64,000 bases of DNA from an uncultured Gemmatimonadaceae bacterium (GTDB lineage Bacteria > Gemmatimonadota > Gemmatimonadetes > Gemmatimonadales > Gemmatimonadaceae). The stretch lies in assembly GCA_963716745.1 (NCBI GenBank), contig OY970320.1, positions 2,624,001-2,688,000 on the forward strand, read 5' to 3'. The position numbers are program-made. This document shows positions 39,901-48,900 of this stretch, piece after piece; the stretch's first letter is position 1; each line of letters begins with the position of its first letter.

Positions 39901-42900
39901 TGAACTGGAAGCGCGCGCTCGTCGCTTTGCTGTGCGCGATCCCGATCATCGCGCTCCTCGCCTTCGGAATGACGCGCGACCCGCGCGAGATCCCGAGTCC
40001 GCTCCCGGGCAACGAGGCGCCGAAGTTCGCGCTGGCCGTCTTCTCCTTCCCGGCGAACGCGCCGGCGGCGCAGGCGAAGGCGGCCGAGCTGCTCAAAGAC
40101 ACCGTGCGTCTCGATACGCTCCGCGGGAAGGTCGTGGTGCTCAATTTCTGGGCGAGCTGGTGCCTGGCGTGCCGCGATGAGCACACCGCGCTCTCCGAGG
40201 CCGCGACCGCGCTCAAAGGCACCGATGCGCGTTTCTTCGGCGTGCTCTACCAGGACGTGCCGCAGAACGGCCGCGACTGGATCAAGCAGATGGGCGGGCA
40301 ATCATATCCTGGATTGTTCGATCCCAAGTCACGCACGGCGATCGATTACGGACTGTACGGCGTGCCGGAGACGTTCTTCATCGGGCGCGACGGCCGGGTC
40401 GCGTACAAGCACGTGGGCGCGGTGCCGATGGACGTGATCATGGGCACGGTGCAGAAGCTGCTCGCCGAGCAGCCGGGGGCGCGGTGATCGTGCGGTGCGC
40501 GGCTCGGCGGACGCTGTGCTTCGCTCTGGCGGCGCTTGTGTCATCTCGTTGCATTCTCATAGTGCGGCCTGTCAGGGCGATTCCCGACTGGATGACTCGG
40601 TGACGGGCGGTCGCATTCGCAATTGCGATGCCCCGTGTGCCAGGGCGAATCGATCCAGGATTCGCCATCGGGACTCGCGAAGGAAATGCGAGATGTGGTG
40701 CGCGAGCAGCTGGCCGCGGGCCGGTCGAGCGAAGAGGTGAAAGCGTATTTCGTGAGCAAGTACGGCGAGTGGATCCTGCTGGAGCCGAAGGCGCACGGCG
40801 CGAACCTCACGGTGTATCTGTTGCCGTTCGTGATGTTGCTGGGCGGTGCATCGCTGATCGTGATCGCGGTCCGGCGATGGACGCGACCGAGCGCGGTGTC
40901 GCAGTCGGAGTCGCCGTAGATCGACGGTCGCGACGCTCGTGGTCCTCAGATCCAGCGGAGGAGCGCCATGAGATCATTCCCTCGTTCGAGTCTGCACTTG
41001 CTCCGCGTGGCGGCGTTCGCGGCGCTGGGGCTCATCGGCTGCACGGAGACCGTATACAAGGACTTCCCCGGTTTCGCGCCGCCGCCGTCGGGCGCCGGCG
41101 AATACCTCGGCTACACGAGCGGCTCTGGACCCGCTGCCCGGTGTGCGGCAACTGCCACGCGAGCCACCAGGCGCTCTGGACTCACCGCCAAGCACTCGAA
41201 GGCGTGGGCGAATCTCCAGGCGAGCGGGCACGCGGCGCCGGAGTGCGGCGTATGCCACTCCGTGAGCACGCTCGGCAATGACACGGGCGCGGCGCGGTTC
41301 GGCTACCAAGGTTCGCCGAGCGAGCGCTATCAGGACGTGCAGTGTGAGGCGTGCCATGGCCCGGGACAGAATCACGTAGAGAATGCGGAGGTCGATCGCG
41401 AACCAGCCCATCCCATCGATCTACGTGGCGGCGGGACTGAATTCGAGTTGCAGCGGATGCCACACCGGCGAGCACCAGCCGTTCGTGGAGGAGTGGTCGC
41501 AGTCGGCGCACGGGATCGTGCCGCACTTCGCGAATGGCGCCGGCAACACGTCGTGCCAGCCATGCCATACGGGGCAGGTGGCGCTCACGGCCACGATGGG
41601 CGTCACGAACACCGTGTACAAGGAGATCAACAACCCGCTCACGACGCAGGGGCCGAACGGCGCGCTCACGATCGTGTGCGCGGTGTGTCACGATCCGCAC
41701 GGCAGCCCGAACCTTGGCCAGACGCGTTTCCCGGTGGACACGGTGGATGTGGCCACGAATCTCTGCGCGCGTTGTCACAACCGGCGGTCGGTGCCCGATC
41801 AGAGCGGCAACAAGGGTCCGCACGCGCCGGAAGGTCCGCTCCTCATCGGCAACAACGATGTGGGCTGGCGGCCGCCGAACATGACGCAGGACAACATCCA
41901 CGGGTCGCACGGCGATACGCTGGTGAACTCGAAGCTCTGTGCCACGTGCCACATCTTCAAGAGCCAGAGCACCGATTCGTCGGGCATCACGTTCTTCTCG
42001 ACGGGCCATCTGTTCCTCGCGATCCCGTGCGTCGATGCGAACGGGAAGCCGCTGCCGACCGATTGCGCGGAGGCGAACCGCACGTTCAACGCGTGCGCGA
42101 CCTGCCACGGCGTCGGGCGCGGTCGCGAAGAGCCTGATGGACAACGAGGTGCTCATCATCAACGGGCTGCTCAACACGATGTACGGCATCCTGACGAACC
42201 AGGCGAAGATCCCGTGCTCGCAGTACACATCGACGTCGGGTGCGCCGTGGACCACCGCGCGCGGCGCCCGATTCAATTATCTGCTCGCGGCGGAATCGGG
42301 GAGCGCCGTCGCCGGCCAAGCGTGCGGGAGCGATCTCGCGCTGCCGCCCGCGGTGAGCAAGCTCGGCTCGGCTGTGCACAACGTGCCGCTCATGGAGCAG
42401 CTGCTGATCAACAGCATCGACCAGCTGAATCAGGACTACCCGTAGAGCGAACCTGCTTGACGGGAAGGGCCCGCGACTGCACTCATAGAGGCAGGTCGCA
42501 TCCGCACCGGGGGGCGTTCAGCTCCCCGGCCGCGCATTGGAGCCCACGCTCGGGAGACGCGATTGATCCAGCAGATCGCTCAGTCGCTCCCGGATTCAGT
42601 CCGCGAAGTCACGGTGGTGAAGACGCCGATTCCCGGCGGCGTCGGCGTGTTCGTGCGCTGGCTGATGAACCTGCCGAGCTGGATCCAGATCACGGCGTGC
42701 TGCGATCGCGGCGGTGATCGGCATCGTGGTGCTCCGGTATCTCTGGAAGCGGCGCAAGGCGATCTGGGCATGGTTCACGACGCGCTCGCGCGGCACCAAG
42801 ATCGCGATCGGCGGCCTCGTCACCGCCGGTCGTGGCGGCGGTTCATCGCGTTCGGCGCGGTGTAGTGGCACTACATGATGCACAACAACGAATTCTGCAG

Positions 42901-45900: not shown

Positions 45901-48900
45901 GCCGCGCGCGCGCAACAGCCGGCCGTGTTCCCGCACGCGGCGCACGCCAAGGTGTTCCCGTCGTGCACGGGGTGCCACGCCGGCATCGTGAGTGGCGATG
46001 CGAAGACCGTGTTCCCGGCGCCGCAGGCATGCGCCGGATGTCACGACGGACAGCAGACCGTCGAGGGGCGCGTGCTCAAGCCGGTGGCGTACACCGGTGG
46101 GAAATACCTCGTGACGAACTTGAAGTTCTCGCACGTGGATCACGCGCGCGAGACGAACACTACCGGGAGCACGCGCGCGTGCGTGAGCTGTCACCAGCTG
46201 CCGGGTACCACCGAGTTCATGGCGGTGAGCGGTCCGGTACCGTCGGAATGCCTTGCGTGTCACGCGCACGAGGCGCCGAGCCATCTCGCCGACGTAGCGC
46301 AGTGCCGCACATGCCACGTGCCGCTCGCGAGCGCGACGTCGCTCAGTGCTGATGCGATCGCAGGATTCCCAAAGCCGGCGTCGCACGACGCGCCGGGATT
46401 CCTCTCGTCGCATGCGCCGCAGGACAGCGCGGCCGTCGCGCGCTGCGCCGTGTGCCACACGCAGGAGAGCTGCGCGCGTTGTCACATGCAGCCGCCCGCG
46501 ACCGCGCAGATCGCGATGCTCGGCAATAGCGCCATGGTGGCGCAAGCGATCGCGGGCAAGCATGCGGTTTATCCGGTGCCGGCGAGTCACGCCGCGAACG
46601 ATTTCGCGGCGACGCACGGCGCCGCGGCGACGGCGAATCCGGCGTCGTGCGCGAATTGTCACGCACAGGCGAGTTGCAAGACGTGCCACCTGCAGCTCGG
46701 CGCGCGCGCCGTGATCGCACAGTTGCCCACGCCGGCGCCGGGACACGCGCAGGGTGTGCAGCTGCGCAGCGCGAGTGATTTCGCGCTGTTCGCGGCCGTC
46801 GCGTTCCGTGCGCCGTCCAAGAATCCGGCGCGCGGCCGGCCCGACATCTGGACCGTGCGCGTGCACGATCCCGGCTTCTCAAGGAATCACCGCGCCGCCG
46901 CGGCGTCGGCCACGCAGAATTGTCTCGGCTGCCACCAGAAATCGTACTGCGCCGATTGTCACGACGGCGTGGGCAAGCTGAAGTACCATTCCGCGGATTT
47001 CGCGATGGGCCACGCCGCGCAGGCGTACGGCCGCGAGCAGGACTGCGCGAGTTGCCACAATACGCAGGCGTTCTGCCTCACGTGCCACCAGAACCTCGGG
47101 CTCGGCTCGACGGGCCGCGCGGACGGGTCGGTGCACAACGCGTCCGCGAACTGGCTGTTGCAGCACGGCGAAGCGGCGCGGCTGTCGCTGCCGAACTGCA
47201 TTACGTGCCACAAGCAGAGCGACTGCATCAAGTGCCACTCCACCACCACGTGGGGGATCAATCCGCACGGGCCGGACTTCAACGCGGATCGCATGGCGAA
47301 GGCCAACACGCAGATCTGCTACTACTGCCACGTGACGAATCCGGTGGCGAACAAGACACACTAGGCGTTGGCGCGCTTGGGACATCGCGCCGCCGGTCGC
47401 GGCGCCGTCTCCGGCTAGGCCGCTTTCGCTCAAACCGCTTCGAGCCTCGCGCAGACTGCGCGCGAGTCTCTCGCTTTTCGCTATCGCGGCTGCGCCGGAG
47501 GCGACGCCGCTCCCTGCGATCGATCGAGGGTGCGCATGCGAGCTACGACTGCAATGCTGCGCCCGTTCGCCCTTGAGCGCGTGGAAGAAGTCAGCGGCGC
47601 GCGATTCGCGCGCGATCGGCCCATGCGCGCGGGCCGTGCGGGGGGAAGGTATCGCGCGCTGCGCCCCAGTCGCGCTCGCTTCGCGAAGAAGGCGCACCGG
47701 TCGCCGGTGCCCCAGGCGGACCATGATCGAGGAGAGGGAGCGAGCCAGCGCCGGCGCAGCCGCGGCAGCGAAAAGCGAGAGACTCGCGCGCAGTCTGCGC
47801 GAGGCTCGAAGCGGTTTGAGCGAAAGCGGCCTAGCTGGCGCTGGCCCGCGACCGGCGGCGCAACAGTCTATGACGCCGCGTGCTCGGCGAGCGCGAGATC
47901 CTCGCGGCGCACGGAGCGCAGCGCGAGTGAGAACACGGAGCCGAACGCGCGCGCGACTTCGGCGCGCACCTGTGCATCATCGGCGCGAGCTACGCCGAGC
48001 TCGCGGGCGATGGAGGTCATCGTGACGTCGGGGATCCCGCACGGGACGATGAGTTCGAAGTAACTGAGGTCCGTGTTCACATTGAGCGCGAAGCCGTGCC
48101 ATGTGACCCAGTCGCGCGCGTGCACGCCGATGGACGCGATCTTCCGCCCGCGCGTCCACACGCCGGTCTTGCCCGAGTTCCGCTCAGCGGGAATGCCGAG
48201 CGCGCCGAGTGCGACGATGAGCGCCTCTTCCACCTGGCGCAGGTACCAGTGGAGATCCTGCTTGTGCCGCTTGAGGTCGACGATCGGATAGCCGACGAGC
48301 TGCCCCGGCCCGTGGAAGGTGATGTCCCCGCCGCGCTCCACTTCGAACACCTCCACGCCGCGCGCGCGCAGCGCCTCCGGCGTCGCGAGCATGTTCGCTT
48401 CCTTCGCGGTGCGCCCGAGGGTGACGACCGGCGGATGTTCGAGCAGGATGAGCAGGTCTTCGGCGATCTCGCCCGAGATCCGCGCGCGCGCCGCAGCGCG
48501 CTGGAATTCCAGCGCCTCGCCATACGGCACGAGCCCGAGCTCCGCCACGAGCAGGTCACGCATCGGTCATGCGACCCATCGAGTCGAGCGCCGCCTGCGC
48601 CACCGCCTCCGCCATGGTCGGATGCGCATGGATCGCCAACTCGATCTCTTCAACGGTCAGCTCGCTCTCGCGCGCCACCGCCAGCTCGTGAATGAGTTCC
48701 GTCGCATGCGCGCCGATGATGTGCGCGCCCAGGATCTCGCCGTACTTCGCGTCGCGAATGATCTTCACGAAGCCCTCGGTCTCGCCCGCGGTGCGCGCGC
48801 GCCCGCTCGCCATGAAGGGGAACTTGCCCACCTTGTACGCGATCCCCTTGTCCTTCACCTGCTGCTCGGTCATCCCGATGGACGCGACCTCGGGATGGCA

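Follow-up and report, generated by a model that had tools for sequence, protein, structure and literature searches.

The window analyzed here, a 64,000-nt stretch of contig OY970320.1 from an uncultured Gemmatimonadaceae bacterium, raises the question of whether four adjoining genes, three for multihaem cytochromes and one for an unnamed β-barrel, could carry electrons across the outer membrane and, if so, in which direction. We assign a probability of about 0.6 to the reading that they encode a porin-cytochrome conduit of a new type, connecting the menaquinone pool with the cell surface. The support for this reading is wholly computational: parts, motifs, signal sequences, conservation and gene order were obtained from sequence, and the barrel fold and the cytochrome-in-barrel arrangement from structural models. 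The four co-directional genes occupy window positions 40968..47364 on the + strand, directly 3′ of ccmABCEFGH; a frame and motif scan bore out the location given in an earlier note on this DNA, as Pfam hits did for the ccm genes immediately before them. The features are as follows.

35167..40916, + strand: ccm block, comprising ccmA, ccmB, ccmC, ccmE/ccmF, ccmG (thioredoxin-like) and ccmH (Pfam)
40968..42445, + strand: gene 1, lipoprotein cytochrome c with 9 haem motifs (motifs, tblastn, profile)
42563..44393, + strand: gene 2, membrane-anchored cytochrome with 20 haem motifs (motifs, Pfam, profile)
44399..45856, + strand: predicted outer-membrane β-barrel, 485 aa, with signal peptide, about 24 strands and no plug (AlphaFold2)
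45853..47364, + strand: secreted 16-haem cytochrome c, 503 aa (motifs, Pfam)
47404..47845: 95-nt inverted repeat, arms 47404-47498 and 47751-47845, 94% complementary

Matches to ABC_tran, CcmB, Cytochrom_C_asm, CcmE, CcmF_C, AhpC-TSA/Redoxin and CcmH identify the ccm block, by sequence, as a System I cytochrome c maturation system, possibly in one operon with the cytochrome module; of the 59 related loci with at least 6 kb of upstream flank, 26 have a ccmH ahead of the module in the same orientation. The three cytochromes all carry export signals and together contain 45 haem motifs (9 + 20 + 16), where about 41 had been counted before. The difference arises in gene 1, in which counting each frame yields nine CXXCH instead of eight, and in gene 2, in which the estimate of about 17 becomes 20 upon adding three CX4CH to 17 CXXCH, while the last gene retains its 16 motifs, with exactly 32 cysteines. 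The CXXCH density of the module is far above chance: only seven stop-to-stop frames with at least three CXXCH occur in the 3.29-Mb genome, and five of them are pieces of the module.

The start of the barrel gene was placed at about 44399, at a GTG codon followed by a signal peptide that ends in AAQ before E, rather than at the previously proposed 44231. The protein matched no Pfam or NCBIfam family and no PDB sequence, and 20 members of its family yielded no consistent family match either, in agreement with its earlier description; PF11854 was not found in the genome. The barrel family comprises 910 representative clusters at E ≤ 1e-3 and matches 412 stretches in the species-genome collection, the best 80 loci being all titled Gemmatimonadota or unassigned. 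As judged from the sequences seen so far, it thus appears to be an unnamed family confined to Gemmatimonadota, present in 183 of the 401 genomes sampled from the phylum (82 of 147 genera), with the four-gene set occurring in about half of the species sampled.

AlphaFold2 modeling of the barrel (20 sequences; pLDDT 78.7, pTM 0.70) returned 23 DSSP strand segments, and the count of about 24 strands depends on splitting the first of these (residues 23-46), which is long enough for two. The modeled mature protein has neither plug nor N-terminal domain and opens straight with strand 1, and is therefore predicted to form a 24-strand pore without a plug of its own. Foldseek searches of the PDB retrieved only generic outer-membrane barrels (MOMP, AlgE, Occ porins, TonB-dependent transporters and ushers), with TMq values of at most 0.45 among the 44 matches listed. 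Among solved structures, TonB-dependent transporter barrels of 22 strands and ushers of 24 come closest in fold. MtrB is absent both from these 44 matches and from the 50 VIA-align matches listed, and its reported position as the Foldseek match of highest TMq was not reproduced. The barrel fold alone is therefore silent on function.

The cytochrome encoded next has 16 CXXCH motifs that are all invariant in 12 sequences, as are 15 further histidines, and a c7/c3-like N-terminal domain (Pfam Cytochrome_C7, 9.1e-15); HmcA gave only a partial match. Its ATG overlaps the barrel stop codon, and in 9 of 11 other loci the two reading frames share a single base, the last of the barrel's and the first of the cytochrome's. 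Across the phylum, the barrel gene is followed immediately by one for a 16-haem cytochrome in 74 of 75 loci. Three complex-prediction runs for the two proteins scored 0.19, 0.73 and 0.76 (median 0.73), compared to a best value of 0.00 in three controls. Of 157 solved complexes 116 attain this mark, as do 2 of 215 mismatched pairs; the model contains no haems, and its pass may owe something to the fold of the solved Mtr complex. The runs shared at least 32% of contacts, with a partner pLDDT of at least 67. Residues 339-492 of the cytochrome, bearing haems 10-16, are predicted to lie in the barrel lumen and to touch every second residue of the strands, together with those loops that a 24-strand reading places outside the cell. 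The contact pairs of least error join P297, W305, F308 and P310 of the barrel, all invariant and within its most conserved motif, to the likewise invariant G439, A442 and R443 of the cytochrome. The lumen placement of the C-terminal third that had been proposed for this complex was hence recovered, and its score of 0.82-0.83 was not.

Upstream of the barrel, the gene 2 product begins with two N-terminal hydrophobic helices, which lead into an NrfH/NapC-type module and then into c7/c3-type repeats. Its three CX4CH motifs are located at 43247, 43539 and 44232, and in 19 of 20 orthologues the CXXCH and CX4CH motifs total 20. CxxCHxM comes first, as it does in 20 of 20 orthologues; the latter count is no independent result, because CxxCHxM was the selection criterion of the script, which retained only frames containing it. 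The assignment as a NapC/NirT-like membrane-anchored cytochrome is supported by a Cytochrom_NNT match on the intact orthologue from genome G004 (29.4 bits, with a cut-off of 24.1) and by a match to NrfH chain 2j7a_C (E 1.3e-6). Characterised members of the NrfH/NapC family are quinol dehydrogenases. A gene of this type lies directly upstream of the barrel in 49 of 66 loci, the other 17 being without it.

Gene 1 encodes a lipoprotein whose lipobox cysteine is present in 18 of 18 orthologues, all of which combine eight CXXCH with one invariant C-x4-C-H, and a lipoprotein gene of this type lies upstream of the barrel in 58 of 64 loci. The family profile matches OmhA (6qvm_A, E 2.6e-17), in an alignment spanning haem motifs 2-9 plus the C-terminal helices, and OcwA (6i5b_A, E 8.9e-15), both from metal-reducing hosts. 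A weaker match is to the 333-residue chain A of 6r2q (E 2.3e-7), which we take to be MtrA although the label in the file differs; 6r2q is the entry that the earlier note gave as MtrB. Further matches are to cytochrome c554 (E 5.1e-5) and HAO (E 3.4e-4), with NrfA only at E 0.13 and MccA at E 0.93; AlphaFold2 did not yield a confident model of the lipoprotein (pLDDT 43.2). Judged by these profiles, the lipoprotein is homologous to OmhA and OcwA, a new point that revises the previous statement that no part is a recognisable homologue of MtrABC or OmaB/OmbB/OmcB, in that one part does resemble known extracellular electron-transfer proteins. A passage of PMC9250108 describes OmhA and OcwA as multihaem cytochromes at the cell surface of two Gram-positive bacteria and places them in the NrfA/HAO superfamily, all members of which reduce nitrite or nitric oxide in vitro, and the title of PMC6703420 presents OcwA as a cell-surface terminal reductase.

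Taken together, the plug-less barrel, the cytochrome predicted in its lumen, the lipobox and NrfH/NapC-type cytochromes upstream and the adjoining ccm genes support the porin-cytochrome reading. In the mechanism that we propose, electrons would probably flow outward from menaquinol. The N-terminal helices of the 20-haem protein would anchor it in the inner membrane, and its NrfH/NapC-type head would oxidise the menaquinol. The 16 further haems of this protein, in its c7/c3-type repeats, would carry electrons into the periplasm and, by a putative contact, to the secreted 16-haem protein, the N-terminal two thirds of which would be periplasmic. Its C-terminal seven haems would be threaded through the barrel of about 24 strands, the last of them reaching the outer mouth, where the nine-haem OmhA/OcwA-like lipoprotein, if exposed at the surface, may serve as terminal reductase for extracellular or insoluble acceptors, candidates being Fe(III) or Mn(IV) oxides and humic substances.

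It is possible, but in our judgment unlikely, that the same architecture passes electrons inward, as has been suggested for MtoAB/PioAB, PCC3 and PCC4. The donor would then be extracellular Fe(II), a reduced mineral or humic, or a partner cell, and the quinone pool or periplasmic oxidases would receive the electrons. The quinol-oxidising type of the inner-membrane part argues against inward flow, as does the presence in this genome of two genes of the MqnA/MqnD family, which belong to the futalosine pathway for menaquinone, a quinone of such low potential that its reduction by Fe(II) is uphill. In 21 of 80 loci, at most 7 kb separate the module from an electron source, an uptake hydrogenase of the Hya type together with its cytochrome b; tblastn found no NiFe hydrogenase in this genome, as noted earlier. 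Furthermore, the closest solved relatives of the outer cytochrome are described as Gram-positive cell-surface proteins, of which OcwA is named a terminal reductase (PMC9250108; PMC6703420). On the other hand, the sequences fix no direction, porin-cytochrome clusters of iron oxidisers share the same general make-up according to a passage of PMC5566968, and part of a study of marine Gemmatimonadota indicates that annotation cannot separate iron reduction from oxidation (PMC11316326).

Given the in vitro activity on nitrite or nitric oxide throughout the NrfA/HAO superfamily, the lipoprotein could also be a periplasmic enzyme of the NrfA/OTR superfamily acting on a soluble nitrogen or sulfur compound, fed from quinol by the 20- and 16-haem proteins, with the barrel as substrate channel and no trans-membrane wire. 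Nitrite, hydroxylamine, sulfite and tetrathionate reductases belong to this superfamily, the profile extends to HAO and cytochrome c554, in vitro nitrite reduction is described for OcwA and its relatives (a passage of PMC9250108), and periplasm-facing lipoproteins are common. Such an enzyme, however, would need far fewer than the 36 wire haems, and a plug-less 24-strand barrel would be unusually wide as a substrate channel. The overlap of the cytochrome start with the barrel stop, the predicted interface in the lumen, which joins co-conserved residues, and the precedence of OmhA and OcwA over NrfA and MccA in the profile matches leave this alternative distinctly doubtful.

Genes 1 and 2 contain 13 single-base indel sites. 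Those in gene 1 (41129, 41136, 41180, 41393 and 42112) cause it to be read in three frames in the assembly, with CXXCH at 41144 in one frame, 41244 and 41343 in another, and 41449, 41554, 41677, 41764, 41938 and 42094 in the third; the G005 orthologue covers 40959-42442 in these three frames by tblastn. Those in gene 2 lie at 42696, 42829, 42840, 42863/42866, 43536, 43969 and 44121, with a frame-0 tail ending at the stop at 44391. These frameshifts, placed to the base, were confirmed by tblastn in three frames for gene 1 and two for gene 2, as reported earlier. Decay of the module in this genome would leave the organism no more than the 16-haem protein and the barrel. It is favored by the lack of any net indel in the genes for these two proteins, whereas genes 1 and 2 have 4.7 and 4.9 indels per kb, some five times the density in ccmC-ccmF (0.9; barrel, 0). 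Yet at 8 of the 13 sites, contigs of related strains, taken from four other public runs, are without the insertion or contain the base that is missing here. Read in the G004 frame, genes 1 and 2 show protein identities of 98.0% and 96.4%, and their ratios of nonsynonymous to synonymous changed codons (0.16 and 0.33) reveal no excess of nonsynonymous change next to the barrel (0.25) and the 16-haem gene (0.19), so that their substitutions look selected still. Larger deletions are absent, the housekeeping genes ccmF (39072) and lpdA (49393) in the same window are likewise broken by single-base indels, and the 89.81% completeness of this single-contig genome fits many miscalled frames. These comparisons indicate frameshifts private to the assembly, that is, assembly errors as previously supposed, and make decay improbable.

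Least credible is an ordinary porin or export channel without physical tie to the cytochromes around it, which the generic fold matches would allow, but which is hard to reconcile with the 16-haem gene following the barrel at nearly every locus, the stop-start overlap, the complex prediction above its controls and the failure to see a barrel homologue lacking a neighboring multihaem gene among loci with enough flank.

No cultured carrier of the conduit module was seen among the records examined. Downstream, the inverted repeat probably ends both the module transcript and the convergent lipB transcript. Each arm holds a terminator-like hairpin (47462-47474 on the + strand and 47787-47775 on the − strand), as located by a consensus scan only, which found 5 such sites against 3.5 expected, and both arms are also present in G004.

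The module and its flanking genes are arranged as follows (window coordinates).

35167-40916: ccmA, ccmB, ccmC, ccmE/F, ccmG (thioredoxin-like) and ccmH, directly upstream of the module
40959-47364, + strand: the four-gene module, in a window of about 65-71% G+C
40968-42445, + strand: gene 1, lipoprotein cytochrome
42563-44393, + strand: gene 2, membrane-anchored NrfH/NapC-type cytochrome
44399-45856, + strand: barrel gene (485 aa)
45853-47364, + strand: 16-haem cytochrome gene (503 aa)
Downstream of the module, opposite strand: lipB, lpdA, 2-oxoacid dehydrogenase genes and lipA

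Just upstream of the ccm genes, a gene on the - strand (34139-35002) encodes a molybdopterin-binding oxidoreductase domain (PF00174, sulfite-oxidase type, E = 8.3e-42). The module and lipB converge, and between them is a 95-nt inverted repeat with 94% complementarity, its arms (47404-47498 and 47751-47845) 252 nt apart and each carrying the same terminator-like hairpin; the repeat is also found in the genome of a relative, G004.

A motif scan of the window located nine CXXCH motifs in gene 1 (over three frames), seventeen in gene 2 (over two frames) and sixteen in the last gene, which forms a single open frame (45853-47364). Across the whole 3.29-Mb genome, seven stop-to-stop frames hold at least three CXXCH motifs and five of them are pieces of the module; the cluster is therefore not a chance find. 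The only other two, both outside the window, encode an 806-aa protein with eight CXXCH motifs and HEAT and TPR repeats (C1:2956454-2958871, locus L105) and a 286-aa protein with five CXXCH motifs and c7/c3-type domains (C1:707366-708223, locus L106).

The earlier note had put the module at about 41 haems, with 8, about 17 and 16 in its three cytochromes. Gene 1 actually has nine, the ninth in the window being the CXXCH at 42094; in 18 of 18 aligned orthologues from other genomes this last motif is an invariant CX4CH. Gene 2 complements its 17 CXXCH with three CX4CH motifs (43247, 43539 and 44232), and the two types sum to 20 in 19 of its 20 orthologues, either as 17 + 3 or as 18 + 2, so that one site must alternate between them. 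The sixteen haems of the last gene stand, with exactly 32 Cys and no other motif, and the count for the module becomes 9 + 20 + 16 = 45 haem-binding motifs. The barrel gene does not begin at 44231: its start lies near 44399, and its signal peptide ends in AAQ, before E; the frame-0 tail of gene 2, which carries four CXXCH motifs and the CX4CH at 44232, reaches its stop at 44391. These parts, their signals and motifs, and their conservation are read directly from the sequences.

The N-terminus of gene 2 consists of two hydrophobic helices followed by an NrfH/NapC-type module and then by c7/c3-type repeats. The protein matches PF03264 (29.4 bits against a cut-off of 24.1) and the NrfH chain 2j7a_C (E = 1.3e-6), and its first motif reads CxxCHxM, a hallmark of the NapC/NirT/NrfH family, in the window and in the orthologues of G004 and G005, another relative. 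The same motif is present in 20 of 20 orthologues, a figure that is not independent, as it served as the selection criterion in the choice of frames (18 were picked by motif). By sequence, gene 2 is thus a NapC/NirT/NrfH-type protein with a membrane anchor ahead of its haem domain, and its Pfam and NrfH matches, hydrophobic helices and first motif would together tie the module to the quinone pool. It falls outside the NrfH equivalog: on TIGR03153 it scores 45.8 bits, and 134.2 are required. Like NrfH, NapC, NirT and CymA, it combines an N-terminal membrane anchor and a CxxCHxM first motif with an above-cut-off match to the Pfam family; unlike them, it carries 20 haem motifs rather than four, as well as a second hydrophobic helix ahead of the anchor.

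Taken together, these data, which are computational throughout, are best read as describing an electron conduit across the envelope. The NrfH-type head of the 20-haem protein would oxidise menaquinol, its haem rod would conduct the electrons through the periplasm, the 16-haem rod would move them through the barrel, and an OmhA/OcwA-like lipoprotein would deliver them to acceptors outside the cell. The full reading, to which we assign a rough probability of 0.3, is that of a hard-wired 45-haem, envelope-spanning wire in about half of the sampled species, in which the 16-haem rod fused to the quinol oxidase would touch the barrel-threaded one, no soluble periplasmic shuttle would be needed, and the lipid-anchored OmhA/OcwA relative would form the end. 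With such a wire, these bacteria could use iron, manganese or humic substances of the soil for respiration, the electrons in many species coming from H2 by way of an uptake hydrogenase encoded alongside.

Four points speak for outward flow without deciding the matter: the anchor is of a quinol dehydrogenase type; menaquinone is the likely quinone, the window's own genome (G000) holding two MqnA/MqnD-family genes of the futalosine route; the lipoprotein is kin to terminal reductases; and an uptake hydrogenase is a neighbour at a number of loci. Inward flow through the same conduit is an unlikely rival, if the least unlikely of them; we consider the outward conduit the more plausible.

The earlier note held that no part of the module is a recognisable sequence homologue of MtrABC or OmaB/OmbB/OmcB. 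Gene 1 does resemble known extracellular electron-transfer proteins: its family profile matches OmhA of Carboxydothermus ferrireducens (6qvm_A, E = 2.6e-17, where profile positions 94-454 align with chain residues 313-668) and also OcwA of Thermincola potens (6i5b_A, E = 8.9e-15). The alignment with OmhA is collinear through haem motifs 2-9 and the C-terminal helices, with an HN motif common to both, and the homology to the OmhA/OcwA clade thus extends over the haem core and these helices. Weaker matches of the profile were obtained with the 333-residue chain A of 6r2q, which we take to be MtrA (E = 2.3e-7), cytochrome c554 (5.1e-5) and HAO (3.4e-4), and E values rose to 0.13 for NrfA and 0.93 for MccA. 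No MtrC/OmcA-type lipoprotein was recognised: with PF22113, whose cut-off is 30 bits, pieces of genes 1 and 2 reach 14-18. For gene 1, the AlphaFold2 model (18 sequences, pLDDT 43.2) was too poor for fold comparison.

According to the passages of PMC9250108 on these proteins, 6I5B is OcwA, with nine haems, and 6QVM is OmhA of the S-layer, with eleven, both being cell-surface members of the NrfA/HAO superfamily that are sparse in databases, and their clade is marked by two penta-coordinate haems with conserved distal histidines. Gene 1, a sequence homologue of both, has nine haem motifs, as does OcwA. It differs in its host and setting: OmhA and OcwA belong to Gram-positive metal reducers, whereas gene 1 belongs to a diderm, encodes a lipid-anchored protein (all 18 orthologues examined carry a lipobox) and lies beside the barrel gene and two long wire cytochromes. 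A periplasmic reductase system that uses the barrel as a channel is an improbable alternative to the conduit; the superfamily of gene 1 includes NrfA and HAO, and the closest profile matches are the cell-surface OmhA and OcwA. In the conduit reading the lipoprotein would sit at the cell surface.

To place the frame shifts that split genes 1 and 2, we used the orthologous stretch of G004, which is 93% identical to the window. The single-base indels relative to it are:

Gene 1: 41129, 41136, 41180, 41393, 42112
Gene 2: 42696, 42829, 42840, 42863/42866, 43536, 43969, 44121

A further difference, at 42012, is an error of G004 itself, since the window and G005 agree there. The barrel gene shows no indel against the G004 stretch, and the 16-haem gene differs only by a compensating pair (45858/45863) and by a single indel at its stop codon (47363). 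In contigs from four other public runs (93-99% alike), the inserted base is absent, or the missing one present, at at least 8 of 13 sites; the public runs listed include no RNA run with the module. Read in the frame of G004, gene 1 (356 codons) has a protein identity of 98.0% and a ratio of nonsynonymous to synonymous changed codons of 0.16, and gene 2 an identity of 96.4% and a ratio of 0.33, compared to ratios of 0.25 for the barrel and 0.19 for the 16-haem gene; these values give no sign of relaxed selection on genes 1 and 2. Single-base indels against G004 also split ccmF (39072) and lpdA (49393), and the genome, a single contig, is 89.81% complete. True decay of the module in G000 is therefore improbable, even though genes 1 and 2, with 4.7 and 4.9 indels per kb, are roughly five times as dense in them as ccmC-ccmF (0.9 per kb): the differing public contigs, the low codon ratios, the equally broken ccmF and lpdA and the modest completeness identify the indels as assembly errors, and bear out the earlier attribution of the split genes to an error-prone assembly. 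Indel density is uneven along the window, with peaks in the ccmG-ccmH spacer together with ccmH and in the E2 acyltransferase gene (50169-50991), which has many indels, some of them multiples of three in its linker. The indels of ccmF, lpdA and E2 are consistent with an error-prone consensus.

The barrel protein has no relative in Pfam (E <= 5), NCBIfam (E <= 1) or the PDB, where its profile obtained a single match (E = 0.39) and nothing relevant. It is not recognised as a member of the MtrB/PioB family (PF11854, TIGR03509), PF11854 being absent from 20 members of the barrel family (E <= 1) and from the whole genome (E <= 10). Word-indexed protein searches returned 21 and 17 close relatives, every one named hypothetical; the nearest ESM Atlas clusters are unnamed and from Gemmatimonadota, and the 10 representative clusters looked up contain metagenomic or MAG records only, with no cultured carrier.

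The AlphaFold2 model of this protein (20 sequences; pLDDT 78.7, pTM 0.70) contains 23 DSSP strand segments between residues 23 and 472, which would make about 24 strands if the long segment at the beginning (residues 23-46) folds as a hairpin. Read with 24 strands, the model has periplasmic turns of 2-5 residues, except for the first (residues 47-72), and long outer loops at 116-126, 182-207, 296-312, 341-352 and 452-460, a pattern typical of outer-membrane proteins. The mature chain opens with strand 1, and the barrel therefore has no plug of its own; as modelled, it would be wide enough for a chain of haems. All matches listed by Foldseek (PDB) and VIA-align (48,161 chains) are generic barrels, headed by the barrels of TonB-dependent transporters (Z = 17.5-16) and the ushers FimD (15.4) and PapC (14.8). 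MtrB, named in the earlier note as the top fold match, is not among these listed matches, which speaks neither for nor against a relation to it. The first periplasmic turn is a 26-residue insertion with a conserved Cys pair after the first strands, missing in loci L010, L017, L018 and L020, and the chain closes with a 13-residue low-confidence tail (473-485) in place of the terminal aromatic residue that is usual in this class of proteins.

The 16-haem protein carries a Sec-type signal peptide and a c7-like N-terminal domain. All 16 CXXCH motifs and 15 further His are invariant in 12 sequences, and these additional histidines point to mostly bis-His ligation. Its best match among solved sequences is HmcA, the Desulfovibrio high-molecular-weight cytochrome (2e84_A, E = 2.2e-12), which likewise has sixteen haems. 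The match, however, is limited to separate c3-type stretches (the best with profile 43-164 against chain 116-240 and the next with 275-389 against 248-376, with 110 profile positions between them unmatched) and is not collinear over the full length, for which reason we rejected orthology; HmcA is moreover part of an inner-membrane complex, whereas the 16-haem protein is predicted to lie in the barrel. It has no match to TIGR03508, the MtrA/DmsE decahaem model, on which genes 1 and 2 score 39.9 and 23.5 bits (cut-off 192.2).

The genes of the two presumptive partners are tightly joined, the ATG of the 16-haem gene overlapping the barrel stop in the window, and the last base of the barrel frame being the first base of the 16-haem gene in 9 of 11 other loci. 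Complex predictions scored 0.19, 0.73 and 0.76 (median 0.73) against 0.00 for the best of three controls; the scoring mark, which 116 of 157 solved complexes attained but also 2 of 215 mismatched pairs, is only roughly valid here, as our own alignments were used. At least 32% of contacts agree among the runs, partner pLDDT is at least 67, and the models hold no haems. In these models, cytochrome residues 339-492 (haems 10-16) contact alternate residues of the barrel strands and the outer loops, which would bring the end of the haem chain to the outer mouth. The lowest-error pairs link barrel residues 297-311, which include the most conserved motif of the family (invariant P297, W305, F308 and P310), with cytochrome residues 442-447, which adjoin the invariant G439, A442 and R443; this predicted meeting of invariant residues from both partners would lend support independent of the complex score. 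The earlier proposal that the barrel holds the C-terminal third of the cytochrome is favoured by the median and the controls and weakened by the one run at 0.19; the prediction may also lean on the solved Mtr complex at the level of the fold. That the barrel is an unrelated porin is the least probable alternative, in spite of its generic fold matches, given these predicted contacts and its near-constant pairing with the cytochrome gene.

The distribution of the family was assessed with the barrel profile, which matched 910 representative clusters (E <= 1e-3), 470 of them also under the stricter limit of E <= 1e-10. In a collection of species genomes, 412 stretches matching the search pattern encode a barrel relative, and the titles of the best 80 name Gemmatimonadota (one Longimicrobiales) or unassigned bacteria. 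An even sample of the phylum contained the barrel (E <= 1e-10) in 183 of 401 genomes and 82 of 147 genera, more rarely in the window's own family (27/94) than in a neighbouring one (117/166). Among the best 80 loci, the 16-haem gene lies directly downstream of the barrel in 74 of the 75 with at least 400 nt of flank, an OmhA/OcwA-like lipoprotein gene lies upstream in 58 of 64, an NrfH-type gene directly upstream in 49 of 66, and ccmH upstream of the module in 26 of 59. Two variant layouts were also observed: in one, two lipoprotein paralogues in tandem precede the barrel, with no NrfH-type gene ahead of it; in the other, genes for 8 and 9 haems come first, then the barrel, the 16-haem gene and a further 9-haem gene downstream. 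The loci concerned are:

Variant layouts: L015 (in the relative G007), 9785-13089; L037-L040, L049, L055, L065; L070, L087-L090, L098
Hya-type uptake NiFe hydrogenase: L024 (e.g. 10583-14726), L029, L039 and 18 more among L023-L102

In 21 of the 80 loci the hydrogenase is no more than 7 kb away from the module, its gene set comprising small and large subunits, a cytochrome b (PF01292), a HyaD-like maturation protease and HypB/HypC. Where 6 kb or more is available on either side, it accompanies 8 of 14 loci without an NrfH-type gene, compared to 10 of 29 with one. A search of G000 agreed with the earlier statement that this genome has no NiFe hydrogenase.

MtrCAB of Shewanella, the solved form of which is presumably entry 6R2Q, likewise has a large barrel around a multihaem cytochrome reaching the outer mouth, with a lipoprotein cytochrome alongside, an arrangement that is predicted for the module. 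MtrB has 26 strands; the module's barrel, without sequence relation to MtrB/PioB, has about 24. MtrA is described as lying mostly inside MtrB, in a complex with 20 haems, in the relevant part of PMC12076491. The cytochrome predicted to sit in the module's barrel differs in having 16 haems rather than 10 and in falling outside the MtrA/DmsE family. The module's lipoprotein is of the OmhA/OcwA and not the MtrC/OmcA type, and its quinol part, to which a 16-haem extension is fused, is encoded by the cluster itself. Assignment to the MtrCAB type fails on all three Mtr families (barrel, decahaem and lipoprotein).

Geobacter conduits (OmaB-OmbB-OmcB and the Ext clusters), presented in passages of PMC9769857 and PMC6148476 as a cytochrome that faces the periplasm, a porin and a lipoprotein cytochrome on the outer surface, share the three-part logic of the module and differ from it in haem numbers and barrel family. 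Profile libraries in which no model of OmbB itself was found gave no sequence relation to them beyond a sub-threshold match to NF041028 (GSU2203 family; 34.1 bits against 325). PCC3 and PCC4 of iron oxidisers, as outlined in parts of PMC5566968, similarly combine a porin with very haem-rich cytochromes and a redox protein of the inner membrane, are likewise predicted from genomes only, and are proposed to span the whole envelope. There, the inner-membrane part is conserved, five-helix and cytochrome b-like rather than an NrfH/NapC-type cytochrome c; the passages concerned place these clusters mostly in Proteobacteria, with different haem numbers, and the stem 'Gemmatimonad' is absent from the paper. 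By analogy, the module would function like MtrCAB, the Geobacter Pcc/Ext conduits and the predicted PCC3/PCC4, in the reading adopted here.

The only such systems of Gemmatimonadota met with in the literature searched are the FeGenie matches to 'Cyc2 and DFE_461-465' and the three MtrABC operons that a passage of PMC11316326 reports for marine genomes. We rejected the DFE_0461-0465 cluster of Desulfovibrio ferrophilus as a model, its host having no apparent porin-cytochrome conduits and its clusters holding NHL-repeat proteins according to the relevant part of PMC9769857. The text of a cave metagenome survey of porin-cytochrome systems, in the parts concerned and supplements excepted, attributes none to Gemmatimonadota (PMC13264449). 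Full-text literature searches retrieved no published description of the barrel, of the four-gene layout or of a Gemmatimonadota OmhA/OcwA relative, the supplementary tables of PMC13264449 and PMC11316326, which possibly list such clusters, being excepted.

The interest of the module lies in its breadth in a major soil phylum, its new barrel family and its link to Gram-positive surface reductases, through which it would connect the outer cytochromes of diderms with those of Gram-positive metal reducers. It offers a putative fourth porin-cytochrome design, and may hold the longest fixed haem path deduced to date from one compact gene cluster. As a phylum, Gemmatimonadota are common in soils and sediments and are usually regarded as aerobic heterotrophs; little is known of how they gain energy under anoxia, and those in culture are, to our knowledge, aerobes. 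If the module is an electron conduit, they would take part in iron, manganese and humic redox cycling, which in many species may be tied to H2 oxidation. A profile of the barrel family could serve annotation tools, which now call the protein hypothetical. Outside the phylum, ESM Atlas look-alike clusters of residues 330-503 of the 16-haem protein (scores 0.90-0.94) come most commonly from Myxococcota and Ignavibacteriota, a lead suggesting that related modules may exist there.
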